DNA from: an uncultured Mycoplasmatota bacterium
GTDB lineage: Bacteria > Bacillota_I > Bacilli_A > RF39 > UBA660
Assembly: GCA_900547775.1 (NCBI GenBank)
Contig: URHW01000003.1
Span: 3,874 to 67,873, forward strand
Length of the DNA stretch: 64,000 bases
Reading direction: 5' to 3'
In this document: piece after piece, positions 5,135 to 62,229 of the stretch
How the letters are laid out: every line of letters starts with the position of its first letter
Numbering within the stretch: position 1 is the stretch's first letter
The notes under the pieces: model-generated
Database searches by the model: none
Told to the model about the DNA's origin: nothing
What the model saw: the letters and a program-made list of their open reading frames with translations, nothing else
Program-made: the position numbers and the translations under genes

Positions 5135-6760
5135 TTAATTTACTATGTATGGGTCTTCTGATGTTCCTGTGCCACCTGAAATTGTGGCAGATGAAACGAT
5201 AGAAATTGAAGGACGGACCCCACTAGAGTCGTCCACGCTGTAGTTGACGAAGCTGCCATCGCTGCCGTCAACGCCCCAAACGACAGCCTTGCTGCCATCG
5301 AAGGAGCTAGGAGCCAAAGACCACCAATAAGTATCTGTAGCATTTTCTTGTAAATATGTTGTAGTATTTTCTAACATATAAGCATATCCTGCTAATGCTA
5401 ATTCATCTGCTGTTATTAAGCCTACTTTTGAATTTATTTTATTTAATTCTCCATTGCATTTTAAACTAGGACCAGTGCCTCCAGCACTATTATTTTTATT
5501 TACTAATCTTTGCGTAGCACCATAATATGTTATATTTGTACCATATCCTAAACCATTTGGATTCCAGCCATATGGATCATATGTTGTATCTGTTACATTT
5601 GTTTTATCATTGCACCATACAGTATCAGCTATTACTTTTTCATAATCTTTAAGATTATTCTTATCATACCAAGCCTCTAAATTAGTTAATATTGTACTTT
5701 TATTTGTATTTGCATGTGCGCTTGCATAATCACTTGTACCAACAGTACCATACTTAAATCCTACATAAGCATTATCATTATAGTTTGTATTAAATGCACT
5801 TTTATATGTTTCACCAGAATATCTTGCAAATGCTGCACTAGCACTATTATTTGCAGCATCACAAGGATTAGCTGCTCCAGTTGGATTATCATTATGTAAG
5901 ATAAGTTTTACTGAACCATCTCCTCCAACTCTTACTATTCTCCAGCACTTATTAGCAAATTCTACATAGTTGTTTTTTACAGCTCCTCTGAAATAATAGC
6001 TTGTTCCATAATCATCTACTGCAGATGCAAGTAATGCGTCATCAGCAGTAGATATAGCAGTTCCTGGTATGGTTATAGGTTCAGAGATTTCTATGCTATT
6101 TCTTAATGATGCAAGTAGAGTACCATTTCCAACCTCATACCATCCATTAGGTGCTGGCGCTGGTTCTTCTGCTGCATTACTTACTACTACTATTTTACCA
6201 GACCAGTTTTTGTTTAGGCCTTGTTCTGTTGTTACTGCACTATCCATCCAAATTCTTAGATCATAACTTTTTTCTTCGTTAGCTTTAAGTCCGGTATTAA
6301 TAATAATATAACCTTTTTTGTTGTTTTCTAAGTCTGTTAATGTTTGACTTCCTAATATAACGGATTTACTAGTGGTTGTACCTTTAGGTGATATATTTAC
6401 TTTCATATAGTTATCTTTTAAGTAAGATGTATTAGTACTTTCTCTATAAGTACTATCTATTGTAATATATACTTTATCATAACTATTACAGTTGTTTTTT
6501 ATTGTAAAAGTAAATGGGGGTTGTTTAAGACCATCTTCATCAGTTATTGGAAAAGCATCTGTTAAAGATATTTTAGATGTGTCTTCAGTAAGAGTTGTAT
6601 TAAAGCATGTTCTTGATGCTATAGTGTTATTTTCAGTTTGACTTAAGTAAAGTCTAAACCAAGCAAAAGAGACTCCAATTATGCACAGGACTGTTATTAA
6701 TAGTCCATAATATAATTTAAGTCTCTTCTTTTTATTATCTATATTTAATTCATGGTTCAT
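5135..6760 (-). CDS. Family A surface/secreted protein A1: TasA/camelysin-like N-terminus with SipW-type signal peptide, plus conserved Cys-containing C-terminal domain with hypervariable block
   Basis: N-terminal TM followed by SFAWF (A/Y-F-x-T/S-like SipW-cognate signal class); FTFTIKNNCNSY resembles TasA/CalY core; C-terminal ~300 aa about 90% nucleotide identical to 13366-15243 and 60421-62229; 4 conserved Cys. Confidence 0.7.
   Translation of the reverse strand: MNHELNIDNKKKRLKLYYGLLITVLCIIGVSFAWFRLYLSQTENNTIASRTCFNTTLTEDTSKISLTDAFPITDEDGLKQPPFTFTIKNNCNSYDKVYITIDSTYRESTNTSYLKDNYMKVNISPKGTTTSKSVILGSQTLTDLENNKKGYIIINTGLKANEEKSYDLRIWMDSAVTTEQGLNKNWSGKIVVVSNAAEEPAPAPNGWYEVGNGTLLASLRNSIEISEPITIPGTAISTADDALLASAVDDYGTSYYFRGAVKNNYVEFANKCWRIVRVGGDGSVKLILHNDNPTGAANPCDAANNSASAAFARYSGETYKSAFNTNYNDNAYVGFKYGTVGTSDYASAHANTNKSTILTNLEAWYDKNNLKDYEKVIADTVWCNDKTNVTDTTYDPYGWNPNGLGYGTNITYYGATQRLVNKNNSAGGTGPSLKCNGELNKINSKVGLITADELALAGYAYMLENTTTYLQENATDTYWWSLAPSSFDGSKAVVWGVDGSDGSFVNYSVDDSSGVRPSISIVSSATISGGTGTSEDPYIVN
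5219..5308 (-). other. Putative DGR variable region (VR) of A1
   Basis: 30-codon block aligning gaplessly with the equivalent blocks of A2 and A3; differences confined to codon positions 1-2 with position 3 fixed (C/T); GC3-rich codons atypical for this genome; conserved 3' flank GTCCGTCCTTCAATTTCT. Confidence 0.6.
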
Positions 6761-13365: not shown

Positions 13366-15243
13366 TTATTTTACGATGTATGGATTTTCACTGGTACCAT
13401 TTCCGGTTACGTTGGTAGAGGGCTTAAGAGAAATTGAAGGACGAACTGCGCAAATGTTGTTCACGCTGTTGTTGAAGATGCTGCTAATGCCGCCGGAAAC
13501 GAACCAAGCGATAGCGAAGTCACCATTGAAGCCGATAGGAGACAAGGACCACCAATTATCACCAGTAGCATTTTCTTGTAAATATGTAGTTGTATTTTGT
13601 AATCCCAATGCATATCCTGCATATGCTAGTTCATCTGCTGTTATTAAGCCTACTTTTGAATTTATTTTATTTAGTTCTCCATTACATTTTAAACTAGGGC
13701 CCGTGCCACCAGCACCACCACTTGTACTTATTAATCTTTGTGTAGCACCATAATATGTTATATTTTTTGCATATCCTGAACCAGTAACATTCCTCCAACC
13801 CAAAGGATTATAAGTTTTATCTGTTACATTTGTTTTATCATTACACCATATTGTATCAGCTATTTTATCAGCATAATCTTTTAAATTATTTGTATACCAA
13901 GTTTCTAAATTAGTTAGTATTGTACTATTATTTGTATTTGCATGTGCACTTGGATATTCACTAGCACCAGCAGTACCATACTTAAATCCTACATATGCAT
14001 TATCATTATAGTTTGCATTAAATACACTTTTGTATGTTGTACCAGAGTATCTTGCAAATGCTGCACTAGCACTATTATTTGCAGAATCACAAGGATTAGC
14101 AACTCCTGCTGCATTATCATTATGTAAGATAAGTTTTATTGAACCATCTTCACTAATTCTTACTATTCTCCAGCATTTATTAGCAAATTGTACGTAATTA
14201 TTTTTTACTGCTCCTCTAAAATAATAACTTGTTCCATAATCATCTTCTGTACTCGCTAATAAGGCTTCGGTTTTATTTTTATTGGTACATAAGGGTTTAT
14301 ATGTGAAACTACTTGATGTAGCGCTTACTACATAATATACGCAATTTAAATTAGTTGTAGTCATCATTGTTCCAGCAGTACTTGAACCAAAACTGTATTG
14401 TTCTCCATGAGTTAAATATTTACCTACTAAGTCAGAATATGAATTAGCATATGTATCACTTGTTACTGCTATTCCTGTTAAATTAAATTTTGTACCATTT
14501 GCTTCCCAGCCTGTTCCATAGGTTATATAATATGCTTGATATTTTGATGATACACTTGTAGTTCGACTTTCGGCATCATCTAAAGTATGTGCACTCACTT
14601 CCTTTCCAGGTGTAGTTATTGGTGCATTTACTTCATTTTTTGCTAGTATAGTTTCTGAAAAAGTAGATGTAGTAGGTGCTTTATCACTTGTTATCTCTAC
14701 ATGAGCACTAAATGCTGCTCCTTGATTTGCGTTTTGGCTAGTTGCTTTCTTAGGATAATATATCTTTAATAGATATGTATGTTTTGCATTATTTGCTTTT
14801 ACAAAGTGTCCCTTACCTAATTCAATAGATGTACCCGTAATATCAGTTTTTGATATTGTTGGTATAACTTCTCCATTTGTACTTGTATTAGTACTTACTA
14901 GTTCATATTGTAATGGATCATCTGTTTTAAATGTGTTTGAGTCTACTACTAAAGTTAACTTATAGTACATTTCAGCATCTGTTGTATTATTACCAGTTAC
15001 TGTTATAGTTTTTGTAGCCCATACATCATCTTTAGGATATATTCCAGCTAGATCAATATTTGCTCCTCCATCATAAGTTATTTTCATTGTTCCGGCATCA
15101 GCTCTTACTGTAGTACTATTTTCAGAACTCATTCCAGCAGTAAAGAATGCATATGTTGCTCCAATAAAGATTATTGCAACAAGGATTCCAATATATAAAT
15201 ATATTTTTTTAAATTGTTTATCCATTTTACTATCTCCTATCAT
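13366..15243 (-). CDS. Family A protein A2: camelysin/TasA-like N-module (type II) plus conserved C-terminal domain with hypervariable block
   Basis: N-terminus YAFFTAGMSS…AGTMKITY resembles SipW-cognate signal and TasA/CalY start; first 185 aa homologous to ORF 46350-46907; C-terminal 300 aa paralogous to A1/A3. Confidence 0.7.
   Translation of the reverse strand: MIGDSKMDKQFKKIYLYIGILVAIIFIGATYAFFTAGMSSENSTTVRADAGTMKITYDGGANIDLAGIYPKDDVWATKTITVTGNNTTDAEMYYKLTLVVDSNTFKTDDPLQYELVSTNTSTNGEVIPTISKTDITGTSIELGKGHFVKANNAKHTYLLKIYYPKKATSQNANQGAAFSAHVEITSDKAPTTSTFSETILAKNEVNAPITTPGKEVSAHTLDDAESRTTSVSSKYQAYYITYGTGWEANGTKFNLTGIAVTSDTYANSYSDLVGKYLTHGEQYSFGSSTAGTMMTTTNLNCVYYVVSATSSSFTYKPLCTNKNKTEALLASTEDDYGTSYYFRGAVKNNYVQFANKCWRIVRISEDGSIKLILHNDNAAGVANPCDSANNSASAAFARYSGTTYKSVFNANYNDNAYVGFKYGTAGASEYPSAHANTNNSTILTNLETWYTNNLKDYADKIADTIWCNDKTNVTDKTYNPLGWRNVTGSGYAKNITYYGATQRLISTSGGAGGTGPSLKCNGELNKINSKVGLITADELAYAGYALGLQNTTTYLQENATGDNWWSLSPIGFNGDFAIAWFVSGGISSIFNNSVNNICAVRPSISLKPSTNVTGNGTSENPYIVK
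13447..13536 (-). other. Putative DGR variable region (VR) of A2
   Basis: Same 30-codon block as in A1/A3; contains AAC AAC AGC GTG AAC AAC; variation versus paralogs at codon positions 1-2 only. Confidence 0.6.
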
Positions 15244-19706: not shown

Positions 19707-20222
19707 CTAACTACCTGCTTGTTCATTTGTAGATGGTGTTGATGTACTGCATGTTGCACTTGCACAAGAACTAGTAATACCACCGCTTCCATTAGCAATA
19801 TTACTACTAGTATTTAGATCAGTGTATGTTGAACCTTTAGTACTGTAACTATTATCTGTTAATGTAACACGATAAGTAGCTTCTCTTTTATCGTCCAAAG
19901 AAACCGTAACATAGCCTTTAAAATTTCCAGATGAAGTAAGGCCTATACCGGCAAGTGTATAGCAATAACAATTATCGTTTATTTTTTTTCTGTTGTCATC
20001 ACTAGTATTTGTTGGTAATGTTCCAAGTAAGTCTTCTGATTGGAATGTACTTTCTGCATTACCTAAGGCTCTTTGAGCATAGATTTTAAATGAACCTTTT
20101 TTAGCGTTATTCATACTTTCTACTACGGCTGGAATTGCAATGATCATAATGATTGCTAAAACTACGATAACCGCTAGTAACTCAACTAATGTAAATCCTT
20201 TTTTATTACCTTTTATTTTCAT
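19707..20222 (-). CDS. Type IV pilin / pseudopilin-like protein (ComGC-like N-terminus)
   Basis: Prepilin class III signal KGFTLVELLAVIVVLAII with Gly-1, Phe+1, Glu+5; Cys/Ser/Thr-rich C-terminal tail. Confidence 0.7.
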   Translation of the reverse strand: MKIKGNKKGFTLVELLAVIVVLAIIMIIAIPAVVESMNNAKKGSFKIYAQRALGNAESTFQSEDLLGTLPTNTSDDNRKKINDNCYCYTLAGIGLTSSGNFKGYVTVSLDDKREATYRVTLTDNSYSTKGSTYTDLNTSSNIANGSGGITSSCASATCSTSTPSTNEQAGS

Positions 20223-23485: not shown

Positions 23486-26400
23486 CTAATTGAATTTCTT
23501 CTTTAAAATAGCTAGTAATATAAGTCCTAAAGCGCTAGTGCCCATTAGACTATATTCTAATAGATAACTATCACCTTCAATTCCAGTGTATGGAATATCT
23601 GGTTCTCCGTTAGTATCATCTCCACCTTCACCCATAACGAATTGGTATACATAGGTTACAACGATATCTTCTTTAGTATATTTACCTTTTACTTCGCCAA
23701 TAGTATTGATTAGTTCATAATCAGTGATAGTAGCTGGACTAGTTTGATAATCTGTACCAACTTGTCCATTAGTAGTAGTTTCTTCTAAAAGTACTTTACC
23801 ATCTTCATCAACATATTTAGTAATAACTTTACCCATATCTTTCTTGTAGTAGTAAATTACTTCAGTTACTTCATCAGTAAACATTCCACTAGCATTTTCT
23901 GGAGTACTTACTAAAATGTATCCATAAACATCTGCTTCTTTAGTAGTATAGTCTTTACTTACTTTACCATTAATAGTTTCATCTTCAGCAATTTTAATTG
24001 TAGTACCTTCTTCATAATGGTGAACAATTACTTTAGCATCCTTTAGAGAATAGATAAATGTAATTGTATTATCACTACTTTTTAATTTAATAGTTTGCTC
24101 TGTAGCACTTTCTAAATTATAGTTAGCAAATACTTTATTATCAGTTTCATCTTTAGCATAAGCAGTATAATTATCATTAATTCTACCAGTATCTTTAACT
24201 GGGTTAATTAAATCTATTACATTACCATCTTTGATTGTTACATATCTTACAGTAACATCAGTCTTCTTTAATTGATAGTAGAAAGTTGCTTCTTGCTTTT
24301 CACTTGTTAAAGTTCCACTTGTTGTACCTTTACTTTCTACATATTCATAGTCACCTAATTCTTCTGTTTTAGGACTAAATGAGAAAGATGTACCAATTTT
24401 ACCATTAACAACGTCATCTTTGAATAATTCTGTTGTTGTTTTATTACCATTATTATCAATGATATAGTGATGAGCTACGGCTCCAGCACTTTCAGCCTTT
24501 TCATAGTAGAAAGTATATTCTTTAGTAGTTAAATCAAATGTTGCGTTTTGAGTCTTGCTACCAACTACAACATAGTCTTTAATATCTTTAGCATTAATTA
24601 CTTTTGTTTCAGTTACTTTACCATCAAAAGTATCATCATCTACTAATTTTGTATTAGTATCTTTTTCTACATAATGAACAATAATCTTAGAATCTTTAAG
24701 TTCATAATAGAAATTGATAACATTTCCTTCTTTAGCAAGGGTAATAGTTTCTTGATTATTACTTACTAAATTATAATTATTTAAAGTTAAAGCGTATTCT
24801 GTAACCTTATCCCCAATATATAAGTCTCCATTATTAGCGTTCTTAGAAATTGTTTTACTATCAGCTACTTTTTTATTAGAGCCTTTTTCTAAGTAGTTAA
24901 CAGTGTATTCTGCTGTAACACCCTTTACTGTGATAGTAACAGTTGAAACTTCTGACTTTGCATAAGTTTTATTTCCTTCTTTATCTGTGATTGTAGTTTT
25001 AATATAATATGTGAAATTATCATCACCACGGAAATTGTTATTTGGATTATATTTAAGTGATCCATCTTGATTAAGTTCTAGTGAACCATATTTTGTATTG
25101 TTAACGATTACAATTTCATCTAGTACACTTTTAGCTTCAGCTTCTTGTTTTCCTTTGTAATCATTAGATTTAATACCATCATTAGCATCTACTACTAATT
25201 CTTCATTAGTATTTGTTTCATAATTATCGTCCATAGTTCTTGGTGCAATAGGTGCAACAGGGTTGATTAGGTTTTCATTAATCTTACCATCAACATTTTC
25301 ATAGAACTTATTACCATCAGCAGCGGTACCAGTAACAGTAGCACCATTATTAGTGTACATACTACCATAATAATTTTCATTTGCTGTTACAGTAAATTCT
25401 AATTCTTCTGGTTTTTTAGAAGATAATTCATTAAATTTATAGATAATTATTGTTTGATCTTTTTCTTCAACAATTTCTACGGCATCGTCATATTTTTCTT
25501 TTAAAGCAACTTTATCAACAGTGAATGTACTTGGAACAACGTCTCTAATAGTTAAGTCTTTAGCAACAACTTCTATATCTTTTGATACAGCAGCAAATGC
25601 TTCGTTTAATTTAGCACTATCATTTGCATCAAAGTATCTGCCACCATTTTTAACAATTGATTGTAAAAATTTTTCAGCATCACTATCAGCACCTACTCCA
25701 AAGCCAATTGAGTATATTTTACCAGTAAATGATTCTGCTTCTTCTTTTGCAGCCTCACTAGGTTTTTTCATGTAACCAGCATCACATGCTCCTACAATTT
25801 CATATCCTTCATACCAGTCAAGATATTTAGAATAATATCCTCTCGCCTCACATTTATAAGTTGTGCCATCAACTCTATCTTCATATGTGGCATATCCATC
25901 CCTAACATAATTTCCATTTAGTTCATATCTGTCTGATGTTGATGTAAAACCTATAGTACTTAGACTCTCATGTTCATCTGTTTTTCCTGTACCATGAGTA
26001 TGTTGCACTCCATCTTTAACTGTTGTAAAGAACGTTGGAAGTCCATCTGAAAGAACAATTAAGTCTTTTTCATTCTTTTTGTCAGTAAACAATTTCTTTG
26101 CTTCTCTGATACCTTCTTGAACGTTAGTTCCACCATCTGCTGCTTCTTCACTGTTTAAGCAAGCATCTAACTTTGCAGCATCATCTGAAAGTGCACATGT
26201 TTTAGTTACGTTAGTATCATACCAAACTACGCCAATCTTGATTTTTCCCTTATTTTCTTCTACTAGTAGGCTATCGATGAAGGCATCAGTAGCATCTTTT
26301 AGTGTGTCTAGTTTAGATTTACTAGCATTTACTAAATAATCTTTCATACTTCCTGATGAGTCTAGAACAAGTACTATTTCTCTATCGCTTTGTTCTGTTA

Positions 26401-26605
26401 TGGTGTATGGATTACCACTTACAGTTATTTTAACTTTAGCACTTCTACTAGTTTCATCACCGATACGTTCTGCAGTTTTAGTAGCAGTAACTTTACCAGC
26501 GTTTGGATTAGTATCAGCAAATACAACAAAAGTATTACCAAATACAGAAGTAATTGTTATAACTAATGCCATAAGTAACTGACCTAAATTTTTCAATTTT
26601 TTCAT
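23486..26605 (-). CDS. Cell-wall anchored adhesin: signal peptide, vWA domain, about five MucBP-like repeats, C-terminal sorting signal IPYTG
   Basis: MIDAS motif VLVLDSSGSM; repeated V-x-V-x-Y-V-x-x-D-G…TFYY modules; C-terminus IPYTG plus hydrophobic stretch plus KKKFN. Confidence 0.75.
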   Translation of the reverse strand: MKKLKNLGQLLMALVITITSVFGNTFVVFADTNPNAGKVTATKTAERIGDETSRSAKVKITVSGNPYTITEQSDREIVLVLDSSGSMKDYLVNASKSKLDTLKDATDAFIDSLLVEENKGKIKIGVVWYDTNVTKTCALSDDAAKLDACLNSEEAADGGTNVQEGIREAKKLFTDKKNEKDLIVLSDGLPTFFTTVKDGVQHTHGTGKTDEHESLSTIGFTSTSDRYELNGNYVRDGYATYEDRVDGTTYKCEARGYYSKYLDWYEGYEIVGACDAGYMKKPSEAAKEEAESFTGKIYSIGFGVGADSDAEKFLQSIVKNGGRYFDANDSAKLNEAFAAVSKDIEVVAKDLTIRDVVPSTFTVDKVALKEKYDDAVEIVEEKDQTIIIYKFNELSSKKPEELEFTVTANENYYGSMYTNNGATVTGTAADGNKFYENVDGKINENLINPVAPIAPRTMDDNYETNTNEELVVDANDGIKSNDYKGKQEAEAKSVLDEIVIVNNTKYGSLELNQDGSLKYNPNNNFRGDDNFTYYIKTTITDKEGNKTYAKSEVSTVTITVKGVTAEYTVNYLEKGSNKKVADSKTISKNANNGDLYIGDKVTEYALTLNNYNLVSNNQETITLAKEGNVINFYYELKDSKIIVHYVEKDTNTKLVDDDTFDGKVTETKVINAKDIKDYVVVGSKTQNATFDLTTKEYTFYYEKAESAGAVAHHYIIDNNGNKTTTELFKDDVVNGKIGTSFSFSPKTEELGDYEYVESKGTTSGTLTSEKQEATFYYQLKKTDVTVRYVTIKDGNVIDLINPVKDTGRINDNYTAYAKDETDNKVFANYNLESATEQTIKLKSSDNTITFIYSLKDAKVIVHHYEEGTTIKIAEDETINGKVSKDYTTKEADVYGYILVSTPENASGMFTDEVTEVIYYYKKDMGKVITKYVDEDGKVLLEETTTNGQVGTDYQTSPATITDYELINTIGEVKGKYTKEDIVVTYVYQFVMGEGGDDTNGEPDIPYTGIEGDSYLLEYSLMGTSALGLILLAILKKKFN

Positions 26606-26640
26606 AACCTTTTCCCTCCTAAATCTATATTAAACAATCT

Positions 26641-27348
26641 TTAAAGATTGATTAATTTCCTACTACTAACAATAAGATAATCTCTTGTTCCATCAAGCAA
26701 ACACGTTTGAAGGATTAAAATATCATCAGATTCGGTAACCTTAACATCTGAATTATATAAAGCATTTTCTCTAATTTTATTTATGTGACCTAAAAAGTCA
26801 TTTGTCTTAAGGGTCATATGTTCATCATCTTTTGTTCTTTTGACGGAAAAGATTTGATAAGTACTAACACCATTTTCATTTTCCAAATAAATTAAGTCAT
26901 TATTTTTTGTAAAATCAGGGTCTAAATACATTCTAAGATTTTTAAAAGCGACATCATACTTATTTGAGTTATGACCATATATGTTTATTTGTTTGTCTTC
27001 AAAAGTATTTCGGTAATCCATGAATACGGCACCAATTCGGCTTTTTTCTTTTTTTAGTGTGTGGTTTAGATAATAAGTGTTATTAGTTGTTTTAACAAAT
27101 AACGTATTAATATCGGCACCCGGCACGCTTATAGAGCCAGCAATATCCTCATTACCATATTCTTGTTTGAAATTGTAATACTTTTCCTTTAAATTTGTTT
27201 CTTTGTCTTCTTTATCTTCCTTGATAACGCCTTCAAGAGCGACAATTTTTAATTTTTCATCATTGTGATGACGAATAATTATAAGACCTAAAGAGGACAT
27301 AAAAACAATTAGACAAAGGCTAAATAAAACATAATACCATTTTTTCAT
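26641..27348 (-). CDS. Sortase (class B-like)
   Basis: N-terminal TM, IYGHN His region, ILQTC catalytic Cys (TLxTC), downstream Arg; 235 aa. Confidence 0.75.
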   Translation of the reverse strand: MKKWYYVLFSLCLIVFMSSLGLIIIRHHNDEKLKIVALEGVIKEDKEDKETNLKEKYYNFKQEYGNEDIAGSISVPGADINTLFVKTTNNTYYLNHTLKKEKSRIGAVFMDYRNTFEDKQINIYGHNSNKYDVAFKNLRMYLDPDFTKNNDLIYLENENGVSTYQIFSVKRTKDDEHMTLKTNDFLGHINKIRENALYNSDVKVTESDDILILQTCLLDGTRDYLIVSSRKLINL

Positions 27349-46349: not shown

Positions 46350-46907
46350 TTACGCACCTTTTGTTCCAGTAACTTCTATATGAACTTTGATGTTTGCTCC
46401 CATATCTGCTGATTGATCGGTATTTGTATCTTTATAAAATAGTTTTAATGTATAAGTATGAACTTTACTACTAGCATTTTTAAATGAACCAGTACCTAGA
46501 GTAACAGATGAACCGGTTATGTCTGTTTCTGGGATATCACTAATAATGGTTCCATTACTTCCAGTGTTTTCACCAGCTAATGTATAACTTATTGGGCTTT
46601 TAAATGTATTATTATCTACAACTAGTTTAACTTCATATGGCATGTTAATTTCTTTTGTCGTGTTAGTTCCGGTTACTGTAAATACTTTAGTAGCAAATGC
46701 TTCATCATTTGGAAGAAGTTTATTGGCAGTTATTTTGCTACCACCATCATAGACTATTTTCATAACTCCAGCATTACTTGTAATACTTGTATTATCTTCT
46801 CCAGCACTCATACCGCTTGTAAAGAAGGCATATGATATTGTTATTCCAATAATTGCTATAATAAGGACGCAAATTATATAAAATAATGTTTTATTACGTT
46901 TATTCAT
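46350..46907 (-). CDS. Stand-alone camelysin/TasA-like protein (family A short member, N-module type II only)
   Basis: SipW-type signal ISYAFFTSGMSAG; colinear with first about 185 aa of A2; lacks conserved C-domain and VR. Confidence 0.65.
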   Translation of the reverse strand: MNKRNKTLFYIICVLIIAIIGITISYAFFTSGMSAGEDNTSITSNAGVMKIVYDGGSKITANKLLPNDEAFATKVFTVTGTNTTKEINMPYEVKLVVDNNTFKSPISYTLAGENTGSNGTIISDIPETDITGSSVTLGTGSFKNASSKVHTYTLKLFYKDTNTDQSADMGANIKVHIEVTGTKGA

Positions 46908-47052
46908 ACTCTCACCTACTATAATAATACAAAATAATTATTTAAAAAGCAAGGCATTATTTTTTACATATGGATATCCAATTGTATTCTATATTTAAAA
47001 AGTTTGCAAATGATTGCAAACTTTTTATAATTTTAGTGTTTTCTTGCAGTTG

Positions 47053-51519: not shown

Positions 51520-52230
51520 TTATTCTTTGCTTAATGTTTTGCCACCTTCAAGAGATTTTAATTTTGCTCTCATGCTAATTATTAGTTCTCCTAAAGTTTC
51601 GCCTTCGGCTCCACCCTCTATTAGAATTTCTTTGACAAGATCAAGTATTTCTGGATCCCCACCTTCAAGTTCATATCCACGTAATAGATAATCTGTAAGA
51701 GTTAAAGCGGCATCAAATTTAGCATTTTTTTCTTCATCCTGGTCAAGTTCTTCCTTGACTTCTAAACTCTTTTTAATTTTTATGTTAATTGTATTTTGGT
51801 AGTTTTCGATTCTCCTAACTAGTTTTGTACCTCTACTTGATATTGCTAGAACGTAATCGTTGGTTTCTTGGTGCGCATAATCAGCACCGATTAGTAATCT
51901 GTACTCGATTAGTTCTAAAAAGATTGCAAAAAATGGACTACCTAAAAGAAATAAGATAATGTTTAGCACGGTGCCTATTTTAAATCCAAGTTTAAAGGTT
52001 TTGTAAGTTTGATTTCCTGTTTTAGACATGTATTCAACAGTATCAGCGACTTCATTTATTCCTTCACAAGTATCATTTAACTTGCAATTCATGCTTAATA
52101 ATTCTTCTTTTGTAAAAGTTTTTCCGGCATATAAATTTTCACTTACTGAATCTATTTCTTTTTCTATTTCATCGCAACTTCTGTCTAAAATGTGTAGCAT
52201 ATTTTTTTTACTTATAAATATTTTTTTCAT
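51520..52230 (-). CDS. Family B paralog B1: coiled-coil N-terminus, 2-TM hairpin, C-terminal domain (divergent)
   Basis: Architecture shared with next three genes; own consensus promoter. Confidence 0.5.
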   Translation of the reverse strand: MKKIFISKKNMLHILDRSCDEIEKEIDSVSENLYAGKTFTKEELLSMNCKLNDTCEGINEVADTVEYMSKTGNQTYKTFKLGFKIGTVLNIILFLLGSPFFAIFLELIEYRLLIGADYAHQETNDYVLAISSRGTKLVRRIENYQNTINIKIKKSLEVKEELDQDEEKNAKFDAALTLTDYLLRGYELEGGDPEILDLVKEILIEGGAEGETLGELIISMRAKLKSLEGGKTLSKE

Positions 52231-52255
52231 AATATCCCCATAAAATTGTTCGTAT

Positions 52256-52284
52256 ATTATAACTCGTAAGTGTATTTATGTCAA
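52256..52284 (-). promoter_or_regulatory. Consensus sigma-A-type promoter for B1 (TTGACA-17-TATAAT)
   Basis: Minus-strand TTGACA, 17-nt spacer, TATAAT, about 25 nt upstream of B1 ATG with GGGGA RBS. Confidence 0.6.
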
Positions 52285-52289
52285 ATAAA

Positions 52290-52310
52290 AAGTCAGCAAT
52301 ACATTGACTT
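52290..52310 (-). terminator. Rho-independent terminator between B2 and B1
   Basis: AAGTCA-9 nt-TGACTT hairpin followed by TTTTATTT on minus strand. Confidence 0.5.
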
Positions 52311-52549
52311 AAAACAGTATTATATTCTTTACACTTTTCTTCTAATAGTTTAAAATATCAGCATCTATTTATGACATTTTGCGGTAGTAATCATTTTATA
52401 TATTTTTCATATAATGTATTTGATTTTAAATAAATATTAGTTTTATTGGAATTTAACCATCTTAACTGATGATTCTAGTTCTTTGAGCGAGATTTATAAT
52501 GATTGTTCTTATCAATTGTTCCTGTTTTCATGATAATGGGTTAATTAAC

Positions 52550-53233
52550 TTAGTTTAAATGTTTTTCTAAGGCTACGTACTTATTCATTTTACTTCTTTT
52601 TAGTTCGACTAGTTCTTCAATACTTGCATTAGGATAGTTTTCATCTTTTAAAAGCTCCTTAACAATACTTTTTACTAGGGTATTCTCAATATTAATACTG
52701 CTGCCATCAAGTAAAAGTCTAACACATTCTAATGCTTTTTCGTAAGCATCATTAAAATTTATTCCAAATACTTCACTGTCATCAATTTCTTTGCTTCTCA
52801 TTTTCATTCTATTTGAAGCATTTTTTTGGTATCTATGGATGCGATAGTTTTGAAGTCCAGTACTATCCTTGATTGCTTCTAAATCAGTTATGGTTGTGTT
52901 TCCTATGCTTTTTATTATTATACCAAGTTCAGCGGATAATAATATAATTGCTAAGCCAAAATTTATAAAACTACTACCTAACACTAATAAGGTAAGTACT
53001 GCGTATGCAAGGTATGATTTATGAGATTGTTTTATGGTCTTAGTTATATCATTGTTAAGGTTTTCTTTTAAGTGTTCATTTTCTCTAAGAAGTTCATTTA
53101 GATTATTACTTATACTAGTAAGTTCACTATTTTGTACATCTAAACTATATAATTTTTTATAAATCTCTTCTAAGTTTGAATCGATTTTCTTAAGTTTTTT
53201 TTCATGTGTCTTTGCAATATTTTCCTTCTTCAT
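52550..53233 (-). CDS. Family B paralog B2
   Basis: Coiled-coil plus 2 TM plus C-terminal motif ELLKDENYPNASIEELVEL. Confidence 0.5.
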   Translation of the reverse strand: MKKENIAKTHEKKLKKIDSNLEEIYKKLYSLDVQNSELTSISNNLNELLRENEHLKENLNNDITKTIKQSHKSYLAYAVLTLLVLGSSFINFGLAIILLSAELGIIIKSIGNTTITDLEAIKDSTGLQNYRIHRYQKNASNRMKMRSKEIDDSEVFGINFNDAYEKALECVRLLLDGSSINIENTLVKSIVKELLKDENYPNASIEELVELKRSKMNKYVALEKHLN

Positions 53234-53253
53234 AATTCATCTCCTTTTGTTTA

Positions 53254-53934
53254 TTATTCTGTAAATGCCTTTTTAAGTACCATTTCTTTGCTTCGTTTTT
53301 CTTTTGCCAGTTCTAATAGTTCGGTAATACTTGCGTTTGGATGGTCTTCATCTTTTAAAAGTTCTTTTACAATCATTTCAATATATGGCGATTCAAGATC
53401 TGGTTCAGCACCTTCAAGTAACATTTCAACATATCTAACTGATAAGTCAAAAAGCATTTCAAGTTCTTCGCCCACCCACACATCATTATTTATATTTTTA
53501 CTGGTACTTTTTACTTTTTCAATGATTCCATTTTTGTAACTAGTTATTCTGCTTTTCTGTCCATAAAGTTCTAAAAGTAGTTCATTAAGTTCTTCTACTT
53601 CGGTGCATCCTTTATATTTATATACAGAGACAACACTTAATGCAGTAAGTACTAGTCCAATTGGCAAATTGATAAAACATATTCCAATACTTATTAATGA
53701 TAGTATTGTACGGATTAAAATATTTCGTGATGCTCCTTTATTATAACTTTCAATCATGTTTATAACTTCATATAATAAGTTTTCGTTATCTTTCATCTTT
53801 TCATTTAAAGATAGGCTTAACTTTCCAAGTTCCTTTAAAGATAGGTTCTTACCATATAGTTCATAACTTATATCATTTAATTTTCTTTCACTTTCTTCAT
53901 AACTCTTTGTTAGTGACTTATATTCTTTTTTCAT
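53254..53934 (-). CDS. Family B paralog B3
   Basis: C-terminal motif ELLKDEDHPNASITELLEL; same architecture. Confidence 0.5.
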   Translation of the reverse strand: MKKEYKSLTKSYEESERKLNDISYELYGKNLSLKELGKLSLSLNEKMKDNENLLYEVINMIESYNKGASRNILIRTILSLISIGICFINLPIGLVLTALSVVSVYKYKGCTEVEELNELLLELYGQKSRITSYKNGIIEKVKSTSKNINNDVWVGEELEMLFDLSVRYVEMLLEGAEPDLESPYIEMIVKELLKDEDHPNASITELLELAKEKRSKEMVLKKAFTE

Positions 53935-53947
53935 AATTTTCTTCCTT

Positions 53948-54628
53948 TTAATTAGTTTTAAATTTTTTTAGTAATGGTGGGGTGTCTAATTGTTGGCGTC
54001 TAATATTAACCAGCTCTGGGATGGTCGCATTTGGGTAATTATCATCTTTAAGTAGTTCTAAGACTACCGCTTTTAATAGAGGAGACTCAATCTTAATATC
54101 TTTGCCACTTAGAAGCCCTTCAACACAGTTTACTGCATTATCAAAAATAGCTTCTAGTTCTCTACCAGACCATTCTTTTTCGTCTATTACTTTTTTGCTA
54201 TGAAAAGTTTTTGTTTCAATTTCTTTTTTTAATCTAGTAATTTTTATCTTTTGTTCATATTCTTGCGTTTTCATCTTTTGCAAACTCTTATAATCTACGT
54301 CAAATAAATTCTTGCCTAATATTCCTGCATTAATTAGTAAAAATAATACTGCTAGTGGCCTATTTATAAGACACATTATAAAGATTATGAGTCCAATAAT
54401 ATTTCCAGCAATAAATCTTTTAACAGTTTCTTTTTCATTTTTATCTAGTTCTTCATCAATTTTGTCATTAATTCTTTGATTTTCACTAATAGCTTTGTTT
54501 AATTCCATTTTTAAACTTCCAAGTTCATTTAGAGGAATATTATTTTCGGAAAGTTTTAAGCCAACATTATTTACTAATTTTTTATTATCGTCTAGTTCTG
54601 CACTTAATTTTTTTATAGTTTTTTTCAT
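53948..54628 (-). CDS. Family B paralog B4
   Basis: C-terminal motif ELLKDDNYPNATIPELVNI; start placed at MKKTIKK to match paralogs. Confidence 0.5.
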   Translation of the reverse strand: MKKTIKKLSAELDDNKKLVNNVGLKLSENNIPLNELGSLKMELNKAISENQRINDKIDEELDKNEKETVKRFIAGNIIGLIIFIMCLINRPLAVLFLLINAGILGKNLFDVDYKSLQKMKTQEYEQKIKITRLKKEIETKTFHSKKVIDEKEWSGRELEAIFDNAVNCVEGLLSGKDIKIESPLLKAVVLELLKDDNYPNATIPELVNIRRQQLDTPPLLKKFKTN

Positions 54629-54754
54629 TATAAACCTCCCTTTTTTACCAAGCAAAAATTATTCTAACACACGCCTTTTTTTCAGTCAAACGAATGAATG
54701 GTAATGAACTTAAAATGTGTCAAATAAGTATCAAAAAAAGGACTAATTTGTCCT

Positions 54755-60420: not shown

Positions 60421-62229
60421 TTAAGTACTTATTATGAATGGGCTATCACTGGTACCATTTCCGGTTACGTTGGTCGTCGACTTAAGAGAAATTGAAGGAC
60501 GGACGCCGTAAGTGAGGAACACGTAGTTGCCGCCGAAGTAGCCATTGCTGCCGATAACGTACCAAACGCTAGCGCCGGCACCATAGAAGAAGTAAGGAGA
60601 CAAGGACCACCAATAAGTATCCGTAGCATTTTCTTGTAAATATGTTGTAGAATTTTGTAATCCATAAGCATATCCTGCTAATGCTAACTCATCTGCTGTT
60701 ATTAAGCCTACTTTTGAATTTATTTTACTTAATTCACCATTACATTTTAAACTTGGACCCGTACCACCAGCACTACCACTAGTACCTACTAATCTCTGTG
60801 TAGCACCATAATATGTTACATTTTTAGCATATCCTAAACCATTTACGTTACTGTAATTATAAGGGTTAAATGTTGTATCTGTTACATTTGTTTTATCATT
60901 ACACCATACAGTATCAGCTATTACTTTTTCATAATTTTTAAGATTATTCTTTTCATACCAAGCCTCTAAATTAGTTAGTATTGTACTTTTATTTGTATTT
61001 GCATGAGTAAGAGCATAGTCACCAGCACCAACAGTTCCATACTTAAATCCTACATATGCATTATCATTATAGTTTGTATTAAATGCACTTTTATATGTTT
61101 CACCAGAATATCTTGCAAATGCTGCAGTAGTACTATTATTTGCAGAATTACATGGATTAGCTGCTTTTGCAGTATTATCATTATGTAAGATAAGTTTAAC
61201 TGAACCATCTCCACCAACTCTTACTATTCTCCAGCACTTATTAGCAAATTCTACATAGTTATTTTTAACTGCTCCTCTAAAGTAGTATGATGTACCATAA
61301 TCATCAGGAGTACTTGCTAAAAGTGCTTCACTTGCAGTAGATACTTCTTTTCCTGGTGCAGTTATTGGAGTCTTTACTTCATTATTTGCTAGAATTGCTT
61401 CTGCTAAAGTTGGCTTTTTTGTTTCAAATGTAGCATTACACCTTACATTACCATCACTAATTGCAGTTGTAAGAATCCATTTTGTTCCATTCCAAGTTAT
61501 ACTTTCGTTAGCATCTATCTTTTTACCATTTCTAGTACACTCTACAGATGCTGTATATTTATCTGTTGTTGGAAATGTACTACTTTCAACTCCATCTATT
61601 AGAGCTGCAACATATAAATCATCTTTTGGTCTTGTCTTAACAGTTCCTACTACTGATATTTTTACTTGATAGTTTTTACCTTCAATATCTTCTTTAGTCC
61701 AGATATCTTTATTATTACTATCAAGCCACATTCTAAAGTTAAATGTTCTACTTTCATCTTTAGATATGCCATCTCCTCTTTTTAGGATATAGTTTTCAGT
61801 TATATTGTATTTAGATAGACTTTGCGGAGTAGATATAGATTCTAGAGTATTAATTACTGTACCATTTAAGTCATTGTCTCCTAGTAAAGATACTTTTACA
61901 TATTTAGAGTCTATTTTGTTAGTTGTACTAATTACGGATGCGATAACATAATACTCAATGTAGTTATCACATTTATTTTTTATAGTAAATGTGTATGGTG
62001 TTTGTTCTAAGGCTTCGCCTTCAGATATTGGGTAAGTATTAAGTAAATTAATTTCATTTTGTCCATTGAATTCTAAATCCATACATGATGCTGCTAGAGT
62101 GTTTGTATCAGTTTGACTTGAATAATTAGTAAATACCGCATAACTTACTCCAGTTATCATAAGTACTACTGCTAGCATTATACATAAAATTAACATTCTT
62201 TTTTTATATCTATAGAGACTATGGTTCAT
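60421..62229 (-). CDS. Family A protein A3: TasA/camelysin-like N-module (type I, as A1) plus conserved C-terminal domain with hypervariable block
   Basis: VSYAVFTNYSS signal class; YTFTIKNKCDNY; C-terminal 300 aa paralogous to A1/A2. Confidence 0.7.
   Translation of the reverse strand: MNHSLYRYKKRMLILCIMLAVVLMITGVSYAVFTNYSSQTDTNTLAASCMDLEFNGQNEINLLNTYPISEGEALEQTPYTFTIKNKCDNYIEYYVIASVISTTNKIDSKYVKVSLLGDNDLNGTVINTLESISTPQSLSKYNITENYILKRGDGISKDESRTFNFRMWLDSNNKDIWTKEDIEGKNYQVKISVVGTVKTRPKDDLYVAALIDGVESSTFPTTDKYTASVECTRNGKKIDANESITWNGTKWILTTAISDGNVRCNATFETKKPTLAEAILANNEVKTPITAPGKEVSTASEALLASTPDDYGTSYYFRGAVKNNYVEFANKCWRIVRVGGDGSVKLILHNDNTAKAANPCNSANNSTTAAFARYSGETYKSAFNTNYNDNAYVGFKYGTVGAGDYALTHANTNKSTILTNLEAWYEKNNLKNYEKVIADTVWCNDKTNVTDTTFNPYNYSNVNGLGYAKNVTYYGATQRLVGTSGSAGGTGPSLKCNGELSKINSKVGLITADELALAGYAYGLQNSTTYLQENATDTYWWSLSPYFFYGAGASVWYVIGSNGYFGGNYVFLTYGVRPSISLKSTTNVTGNGTSDSPFIIST
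60505..60594 (-). other. Putative DGR variable region (VR) of A3
   Basis: Same 30-codon block; NNC-type variation relative to A1/A2; conserved 3' flank GTCCGTCCTTCAATTTCT. Confidence 0.6.

Follow-up and report, generated by a model that had tools for sequence, protein, structure and literature searches.

The gene at positions 46350..46907 of the window, by which we mean the whole 64-kb stretch of DNA that was analysed, is real and conserved, is under selection and has its own promoter, and the module that it encodes is widespread both alone and fused to other domains. We call this gene S185. Its product is probably a functional exported TasA-like subunit, composed of a signal peptide, an N-terminal segment and a beta-sandwich, which would form the shaft of a donor-strand fibre. 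The homology of the module to TasA is moderately supported by profile comparisons, whereas cleavage, polymerisation and co-assembly with the longer proteins A1, A2 and A3 of the same window are steps that we infer by analogy with known systems. What is new is less S185 alone than the family for which it stands, which is large, modular and unannotated.

The S185 gene and its locus

The gene, its expression signals and the regions of its product are placed as follows.

46350..46907, minus strand: S185, the stand-alone N-module gene, 185 aa plus stop, taken from the list of open reading frames
46827..46907, minus strand: predicted Sec-type signal peptide, S185 residues 1-27
46797..46826, minus strand: first ten mature residues, F28-E37, candidate donor-strand segment
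46353..46796, minus strand: beta-sandwich (jelly-roll-like) core, S185 residues 38-185
46912..46917, minus strand: ribosome-binding site AGGTGA of S185
46924..46929, minus strand: -10 element TATTAT of S185, with TG in front and a 17 nt spacer to the -35 element, kept in five species
46947..46952, minus strand: -35 element TTGCTT of S185, the same letters in five species
46996..47027, no strand: perfect palindrome (terminator-like hairpin) from the scan for promoters and terminators; locus L001 (see below) has one too

The promoter TTGCTT-17-TATTAT and the ribosome-binding site that an earlier note on this DNA had proposed were found as described, the latter being AGGTGA. Both are near-identical across five species although dS is ~1 and synonymous sites are near saturation. 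The palindrome stands between the upstream division-cluster genes and S185.

The translation of S185 reads MNKRNKTLFYIICVLIIAIIGITISYAFFTSG at the N-terminus and TGTKGA at the C-terminus. Its signal peptide has a KRNK n-region, a hydrophobic core of 17 residues and a c-region S-Y-A, and would be cut before F28. One AF2 model gives residues 3-33 as one long helix. For the mature protein, AF2 model 2 (63 sequences) gives a ten-stranded sandwich with a pLDDT of 84.8 and a pTM of 0.80; in the model of the mature protein, F28-E37 have a pLDDT of 35, that is, they are modelled as disordered. In the family, conservation is highest at the SYAYFTA junction (3.38 bits per column); the first ten mature residues, although modelled as disordered, reach 2.59 bits, as against 2.14 bits in the folded core. 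Exactly four ORFs of the window combine an N-terminal hydrophobic helix with a [ST][YF]A[FWV]F junction, and these are S185, A1, A2 and A3.

Some other identities for S185 were considered and rejected. It is not a lipoprotein, as it has no lipobox and its orthologs have Gly or Ser in place of Cys13. Nor was a signal like that of type IV pilins accepted, since S185 has no G/FTLxE motif (the slash marks the cut, here and below), unlike the true pilin-like ORF at 19707-20222 of the window (minus strand), which reads KGFTLVELLAV... Horizontal acquisition found no favour either, the GC3 of S185 (0.145) being inside the range of host genes.

Public contigs with the exact S185 sequence number 92, and its cluster at 90% comprises 403 members, of which all that are listed are 185 aa long. 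In a database search with S185, all proteins that matched at 68-93% identity were 183-185 aa long. The locus itself could be compared with those of four other species-level genomes, all of them 'uncultured Bacilli' MAGs (L001-L004). Gene order is the same in each: mraZ-rsmH-ftsL-PBP2B, a gene for a 190-aa membrane protein, S185, spoVIF, a 244-aa gene, a 243-aa gene and an APH-like kinase gene. The S185 orthologs at this position are 184-188 aa long, at 68-87% identity (orthologs as a whole span 183-188 aa), and the length and the stop position of the short gene are conserved across the five species. Pairwise dN/dS for S185 is 0.13-0.23 at a dS of 0.4-1.8, compared with 0.04-0.22 for four neighbouring genes. 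S185 is under purifying selection that is somewhat relaxed, as is usual for surface proteins.

The surroundings of S185 show some movement. At 6704-7936 of L002, a 410-aa ORF is inserted between the gene for the 190-aa membrane protein and S185, leaving the S185 promoter intact. Upstream of mraZ, four tandem paralogous genes of unknown function (236, 227, 226 and 235 aa) occupy 51520-54655 of the window (minus strand), and their copy number varies, with one to three copies visible in L001-L003. Past the APH-like kinase gene, and in the same string of genes as S185, a long A1-like paralog is present at L001 9246-11183, L003 11251-13140 and L004 5553-7169. The window and L002 have no long paralog there, and A1 of the window is ~40 kb away. 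As the positions of the A1-like paralogs vary among species, the long paralogs change locus while S185 stays fixed.

The N-module alone and in long proteins

Three long paralogs of S185 are encoded in the window.

5135..6760, minus strand: A1, long paralog of 541 aa; its N-module is divergent, its C-domain the shared one
13366..15243, minus strand: A2, long paralog of 619 aa counted from ATG 15225, with N-module, a middle region of ~135 aa and the shared C-domain
60421..62229, minus strand: A3, 602 aa, the third of the long paralogs; divergent N-module together with the shared C-domain

Comparison of S185 with the window by tblastn and blastp (six-frame translation) bears out the colinearity with the N-terminus of A2 that had been claimed before: S185 residues 1-184 align at 46% identity with two small gaps (E 5e-47). 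The matches to the other N-modules are 26% identity over 197 aa for A3 (E 1e-5) and 28% identity over 79 aa for A1. The mechanical ORF of A2 is 6 codons too long. Its seventh codon, ATG 15225, has AGGAGA before it, and public gene calls give the protein 619 aa, so that this codon is almost certainly the true start; with it, the colinearity of the two proteins begins at their first residues. The further claim that S185 ends where A2 enters the shared C-domain needs correction. S185 stops at the end of the N-module, and A2 continues there into a linker or middle region of ~135 aa (about residues 190-325) and only then reaches the C-domain.

The C-domains of A1, A2 and A3 (~300 aa) are 70-74% identical to each other in amino acids and share the motif string DDYGTSYYFRG...CWRIVR...WWSLSP...VRPSISL. 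A Pfam scan of these three C-domains gave no match. Long relatives from other genomes do reach DUF6273, with an E of 0.0011 for the gene at L008 2237-4060, and in 4 of 75 long representatives, with 4e-08 as the best value. To judge by these distant matches, the C-domain of A1-A3 is probably a divergent domain of the DUF6273 type.

The earlier note allowed for truncation as one of its readings. On this view the locus once had a long gene of the A2 type, which lost its C-terminal part and left a remnant that is decaying or only fortuitously open. Domain loss or gain has indeed happened repeatedly in the family, the nearest neighbour being long for 14 of the 24 short representatives, and true truncated or split long genes are known in other genomes (P0014 and P0015). 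At the S185 locus, however, four other species hold the same short gene of 184-188 aa with no scar and no C-domain remnant, and its length and stop position are conserved. A full-length gene with a deletion scar, the refuting sign named by the earlier note, was looked for at the homologous loci L001-L004 and not found. There is no remnant of the linker either: only 29 nt separate the S185 stop from spoVIF, and tblastn of the window with the C-terminal part of A2 found the three long genes only, and nothing at S185. The dN/dS of about 0.13-0.23 argues in the same direction, as do the proteins nearest to S185 beyond its own orthologs, which are stand-alone too (P0362 at 55% and P0010 at 52% identity); the A2 group comes next, at 44-46%. 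Truncation is thus very improbable and is rejected. Any domain loss must therefore be ancient and have been followed by selection, and the product is a bona fide gene.

Truncated and split long genes could be inspected elsewhere. In P0014 (201 aa), the first part of the linker is retained, and the protein ends in ...SAPKNWNSC. P0015 (266 aa) is followed, 10 nt on, by a 311-aa ORF which by its size and position appears to hold the rest of the gene. These disrupted long paralogs are encoded at L009 10001-11746 and L010 4753-5938, and real truncation, as seen in them, looks different from S185.

Another reading had made S185 a silent cassette or donor, which would give N-module sequence to A2 or to other long paralogs by gene conversion, in the style of antigenic variation. 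The long paralogs are in fact mosaics, such as the 645-aa gene of L001 (9246-11183), which joins an N-module of the A1 type to a middle region of the A2 type and a C-domain, and identical runs of 40-69 nt are found among the C-domains of A1-A3. Recombination therefore occurs within the family, and the sequences suggest that the long paralogs shuffle modules or undergo gene conversion with each other. S185 is outside this exchange. Its DNA identity to A2 is only about 66% and is confined to the first 310 nt, and the longest exact run that the two genes share is 11 nt, against a chance mean of 11.4. The same holds for the three long paralogs together, where the longest runs of 11-12 nt equal those of codon-shuffled controls (mean 11.2-11.4), so no tract shared with A2 is above chance. 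Flanking homology between S185 and the paralogs is absent, and S185 is single-copy, lies 31 kb from A2 and owns a conserved promoter, ribosome-binding site and start codon. We give the donor reading next to no credence.

With S185 taken as a gene in its own right, the question is how common such genes are. A profile of the N-module matches 6,734 clusters (50% identity) at E <= 1e-3 and 2,521 at E <= 1e-10, and the match is always at the very N-terminus. Among the best 150 of the 6,734, 23 proteins have 180-199 aa, compared with 1-8 in any other 20-aa bin. These short proteins all end directly past the last strand, and many of them are encoded on contigs of 60-170 kb. From the sharp length peak, the shared end point and the long contigs it follows that the stand-alone form is a recurrent and complete architecture. 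The idea that the short forms are one clade did not survive a nearest-neighbour test, in which the nearest neighbour was short in only 6 of 24 cases. Short and long forms are interspersed, and C-terminal domains were therefore gained or lost many times. The long members carry DUF285, DUF6273, Listeria-Bacteroides repeats, BspA-type LRR, RCC1, fn3 or Hint domains, and the source names of family members say 'hypothetical protein' only. For annotation, this means that short members like S185 should be called as genuine genes and not as fragments of long ones.

Other arrangements of the module also occur. At L006 7244-9578, a 251-aa short member is directly upstream of a 525-aa long member with a gap of 1 nt, and in this more distant lineage the pair may be operonic. 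A partial second copy of the N-module is present in P0039 and other long members; residues 218-325 of P0039 are 31% identical to residues 80-183 of A2.

TasA likeness and the proposed role of the module

Curated profiles do not reach S185. Pfam and NCBIfam scans of S185 gave no match at E <= 0.1, nor did a scan of A1, A2 and A3 for PF12389 (Peptidase_M73), the profile of the TasA/CalY (camelysin) family. PF12389 does match 6 of 26 stand-alone relatives weakly (best E 8.1e-6; profile positions ~2-85), and two family members carry a precomputed PF12389 annotation. When scanned singly, four of the matching relatives score 14-20.6 bits, which is under the gathering score of 22.5 bits. By curated thresholds, S185 is not a member of PF12389. 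The profile for signal peptides of the SipW type (TIGR04088, cut-off 19 bits) does not match S185, gives 14.8 bits for A2, below that cut-off, and matches 4 of the 26 stand-alone relatives, with a best E of 0.0089.

Profile-profile comparison goes further. HHalign of a 161-sequence family profile with a 117-sequence TasA profile, for which the TasA query was verified to be identical to PDB 8AUR, gave a probability of 72.8%, below the usual bar of 90-95%, with an E of 3.2e-5 over 71 columns. The alignment pairs S185 residues 2-79 with TasA residues 1-73, from the signal peptide to the first core strand. It brings the TasA cleavage junction TWA/AF together with SYA/FF, and it also includes the strands 'AGTLDL' and 'KPGD..K.F.F'. 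Under less strict settings, it stays colinear to the C-terminus and matches 'QN.YQG...F.F' of TasA with 'DQN.DQGK.F.AHI' of the family, TasA having an extra insert of ~50 residues. A profile search of PDB sequences gave no match at E <= 10. These signals are weak one by one but agree, and S185 is likely to belong, as a distant member, to the TasA/BsaA superfamily. Of the 'small camelysin-like fibre subunit' of the earlier note, then, the bona fide gene stands, and the likeness to TasA and camelysin is moderately supported, by remote homology only; the fibre role is something we infer.

The genes around S185 do not resemble a TasA locus. Its neighbours are the PBP2B cluster, spoVIF and the APH-like kinase gene, and no gene like sipW or tapA adjoins S185 or is found in the 64-kb window. 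The S26-type 'SM.P' motif is in no ORF of the window. Likewise, no sipW- or tapA-like gene is next to family members in L006-L011, and no signal-peptidase Pfam family was found among the called genes of L009-L011.

Together, our data suggest a model in which S185 is independently transcribed and its product exported. The domain would be a compact, very divergent relative of the biofilm-matrix fibre proteins TasA, CalY and BsaA. Its signal peptide would be cut after S-Y-A, either by a general signal peptidase or by an enzyme of the SipW type that is encoded elsewhere, and the N-terminal segment, intrinsically unstructured and now free, would then insert as a donor strand into the sandwich of the subunit next to it. 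S185 subunits joined in this way would make up the cargo-free shaft of a fibre on the cell surface, perhaps with the long paralogs taking part. That the N-terminal segment is conserved and yet modelled as disordered matches the donor-strand behaviour of TasA (PMC9674648) and BsaA (PMC11580942).

The main rival is a membrane-anchored monomer. Here, the N-terminal hydrophobic helix would stay uncleaved and tether one beta-sandwich outside the membrane, with no fibre; the module would serve the long paralogs as an anchor plus stalk for display of the C-terminal domain, and S185 would be a cargo-free version, for example a spacer or a competitor for a shared partner. The single long helix that AF2 gives for residues 3-33 speaks for such an anchor, and the long paralog sequences have no other recognisable one. 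No dedicated signal peptidase is nearby, and the structural match of S185 to TasA is not specific. On the other hand, S-Y-A/F-F obeys the rule of small residues at -3 and -1 for signal peptidase I and aligns with the cleavage site of TasA. Moreover, the junction and the disordered segment after it are the most conserved parts of the family, which would be unexpected for a mere anchor or linker. We regard the anchored monomer as unlikely, if far from negligible, and keep the donor-strand subunit as the preferred reading.

The preferred reading can be extended, more doubtfully, to a division of labour between short and long proteins. S185 would be the shaft of a sortase-independent fibre assembled by donor-strand exchange, with A1-A3 and the proteins tipped with DUF285, DUF6273, BspA-LRR or Flg_new domains as interchangeable adhesins at its tip or sides. 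We put this forward as a speculative and rather improbable proposal.

A different kind of surface structure may be encoded in the same window, where 23486-27348 (minus strand) is a possible locus of a sortase-dependent adhesin or pilus. A 1039-aa protein there shows, on visual inspection, a signal peptide, an N-terminal region that resembles vWA, repeats and a C-terminal tail of PYTG plus a hydrophobic stretch, and in the adjoining 235-aa protein the motif 'LQTC' is sortase-like.

A few model organisms are known to make TasA-type fibres, from matrix proteins with a single domain whose genes stand beside that of a dedicated signal peptidase. The compact and very divergent TasA-like module described here defines a huge unannotated family in uncultured human-gut Bacilli (the 6,734 clusters above), in which it is used in two ways, alone or as the constant N-terminus of surface proteins that have several domains and resemble adhesins. 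Should the module polymerise, it would offer gut Firmicutes a widespread and simple sortase-free route to fibres that display varied adhesins. If the proposal of shaft and interchangeable adhesins is true, the system would be derived from TasA but analogous in function to chaperone-usher pili, and its repertoire of adhesins would be large and recombining.

Comparison with known systems

In silent-cassette antigenic variation, such as that of pilE/pilS in Neisseria, a partial copy of a surface-protein gene is kept elsewhere in the genome. S185 differs from cassettes of this type in having a promoter, a ribosome-binding site, a start codon and a signal peptide, and it shares no high-identity tract with a putative expression locus.

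The likeness to TasA has several parts. In both proteins the signal peptide ends in an aromatic-Ala-aromatic junction (TWA/AF in TasA, SYA/FF in S185), and the segment after the junction is unstructured in the monomer (for TasA, PMC9674648; for S185, as modelled). In TasA, the donor strand consists of residues 28-38 of this region, which complete the sandwich of the subunit that follows (PMC9674648). Both also share an 'AG-x-[LM]-x-[IL]' strand, a first core strand of the form 'P-x-D...K-x-F-x-[VL]', a C-terminal 'QN..QG...F' motif and, as modelled for S185, an architecture with one beta-sandwich or jelly-roll domain. In contrast to TasA, S185 is about 50-75 residues shorter and has no helical insert. 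Its gene stands beside cell-division and sporulation genes and not in an operon of the tapA-sipW-tasA type, and its module is also the N-terminus of multidomain proteins of 400-1000 aa.

C. perfringens BsaA is comparable to S185 as a remote TasA-family matrix protein of an anaerobic Firmicute with a disordered N-terminal donor segment. Its N-terminal loop, disordered at first, becomes the donor strand and is then locked by an isopeptide bond (PMC11580942); for BsaA/BsaB (TIGR04090), this donor-strand 'exchange and lock' involves an N-E-K isopeptide triad (PMC11580942). Several paralogs per genome are a further point in common, and for BsaA they have been taken to suggest heteropolymers (PMC11580942). 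In S185, K74, which precedes the first core strand, is invariant, and E37 in the N-terminal segment is near-invariant; this glutamate of the donor segment and the lysine at the acceptor edge might form a locking contact. However, the donor segment of the family has no conserved Asn or Asp when alignment A4 is read by eye, and a complete BsaA-type Asn-Glu-Lys triad, looked for in the same way, was not found. TIGR04090 is touched by only 1 of 26 members (E 0.099), and there is no sipW operon. The secretion of BsaA and BsaC in C. perfringens has been reported to depend on type IV pilus proteins (PMC11580942). Two type IV pilin-like genes are present at L006 1033-1910, ~5 kb upstream of the short/long pair described above, but any link between pilin-like ORFs, including the one in the window, and the S185 family is pure speculation.

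The archaeal bundling pilus protein AbpA is a TasA homolog that is detectable only by profile or structure comparison, and it is processed by a general signal peptidase, with no dedicated sipW nearby (PMC9245690). AbpA is paired with the longer AbpB, which has extra distal domains and has been proposed to be an initiator or an adhesin (PMC9245690). The archaeal system is encoded in an operon, whereas the genes of the S185 system are scattered round the genome. Its pairing of a short with a long protein nevertheless parallels that of S185 with A1-A3, with the difference that in the S185 system the module of the short protein is also present, in full, at the N-terminus of the long ones.
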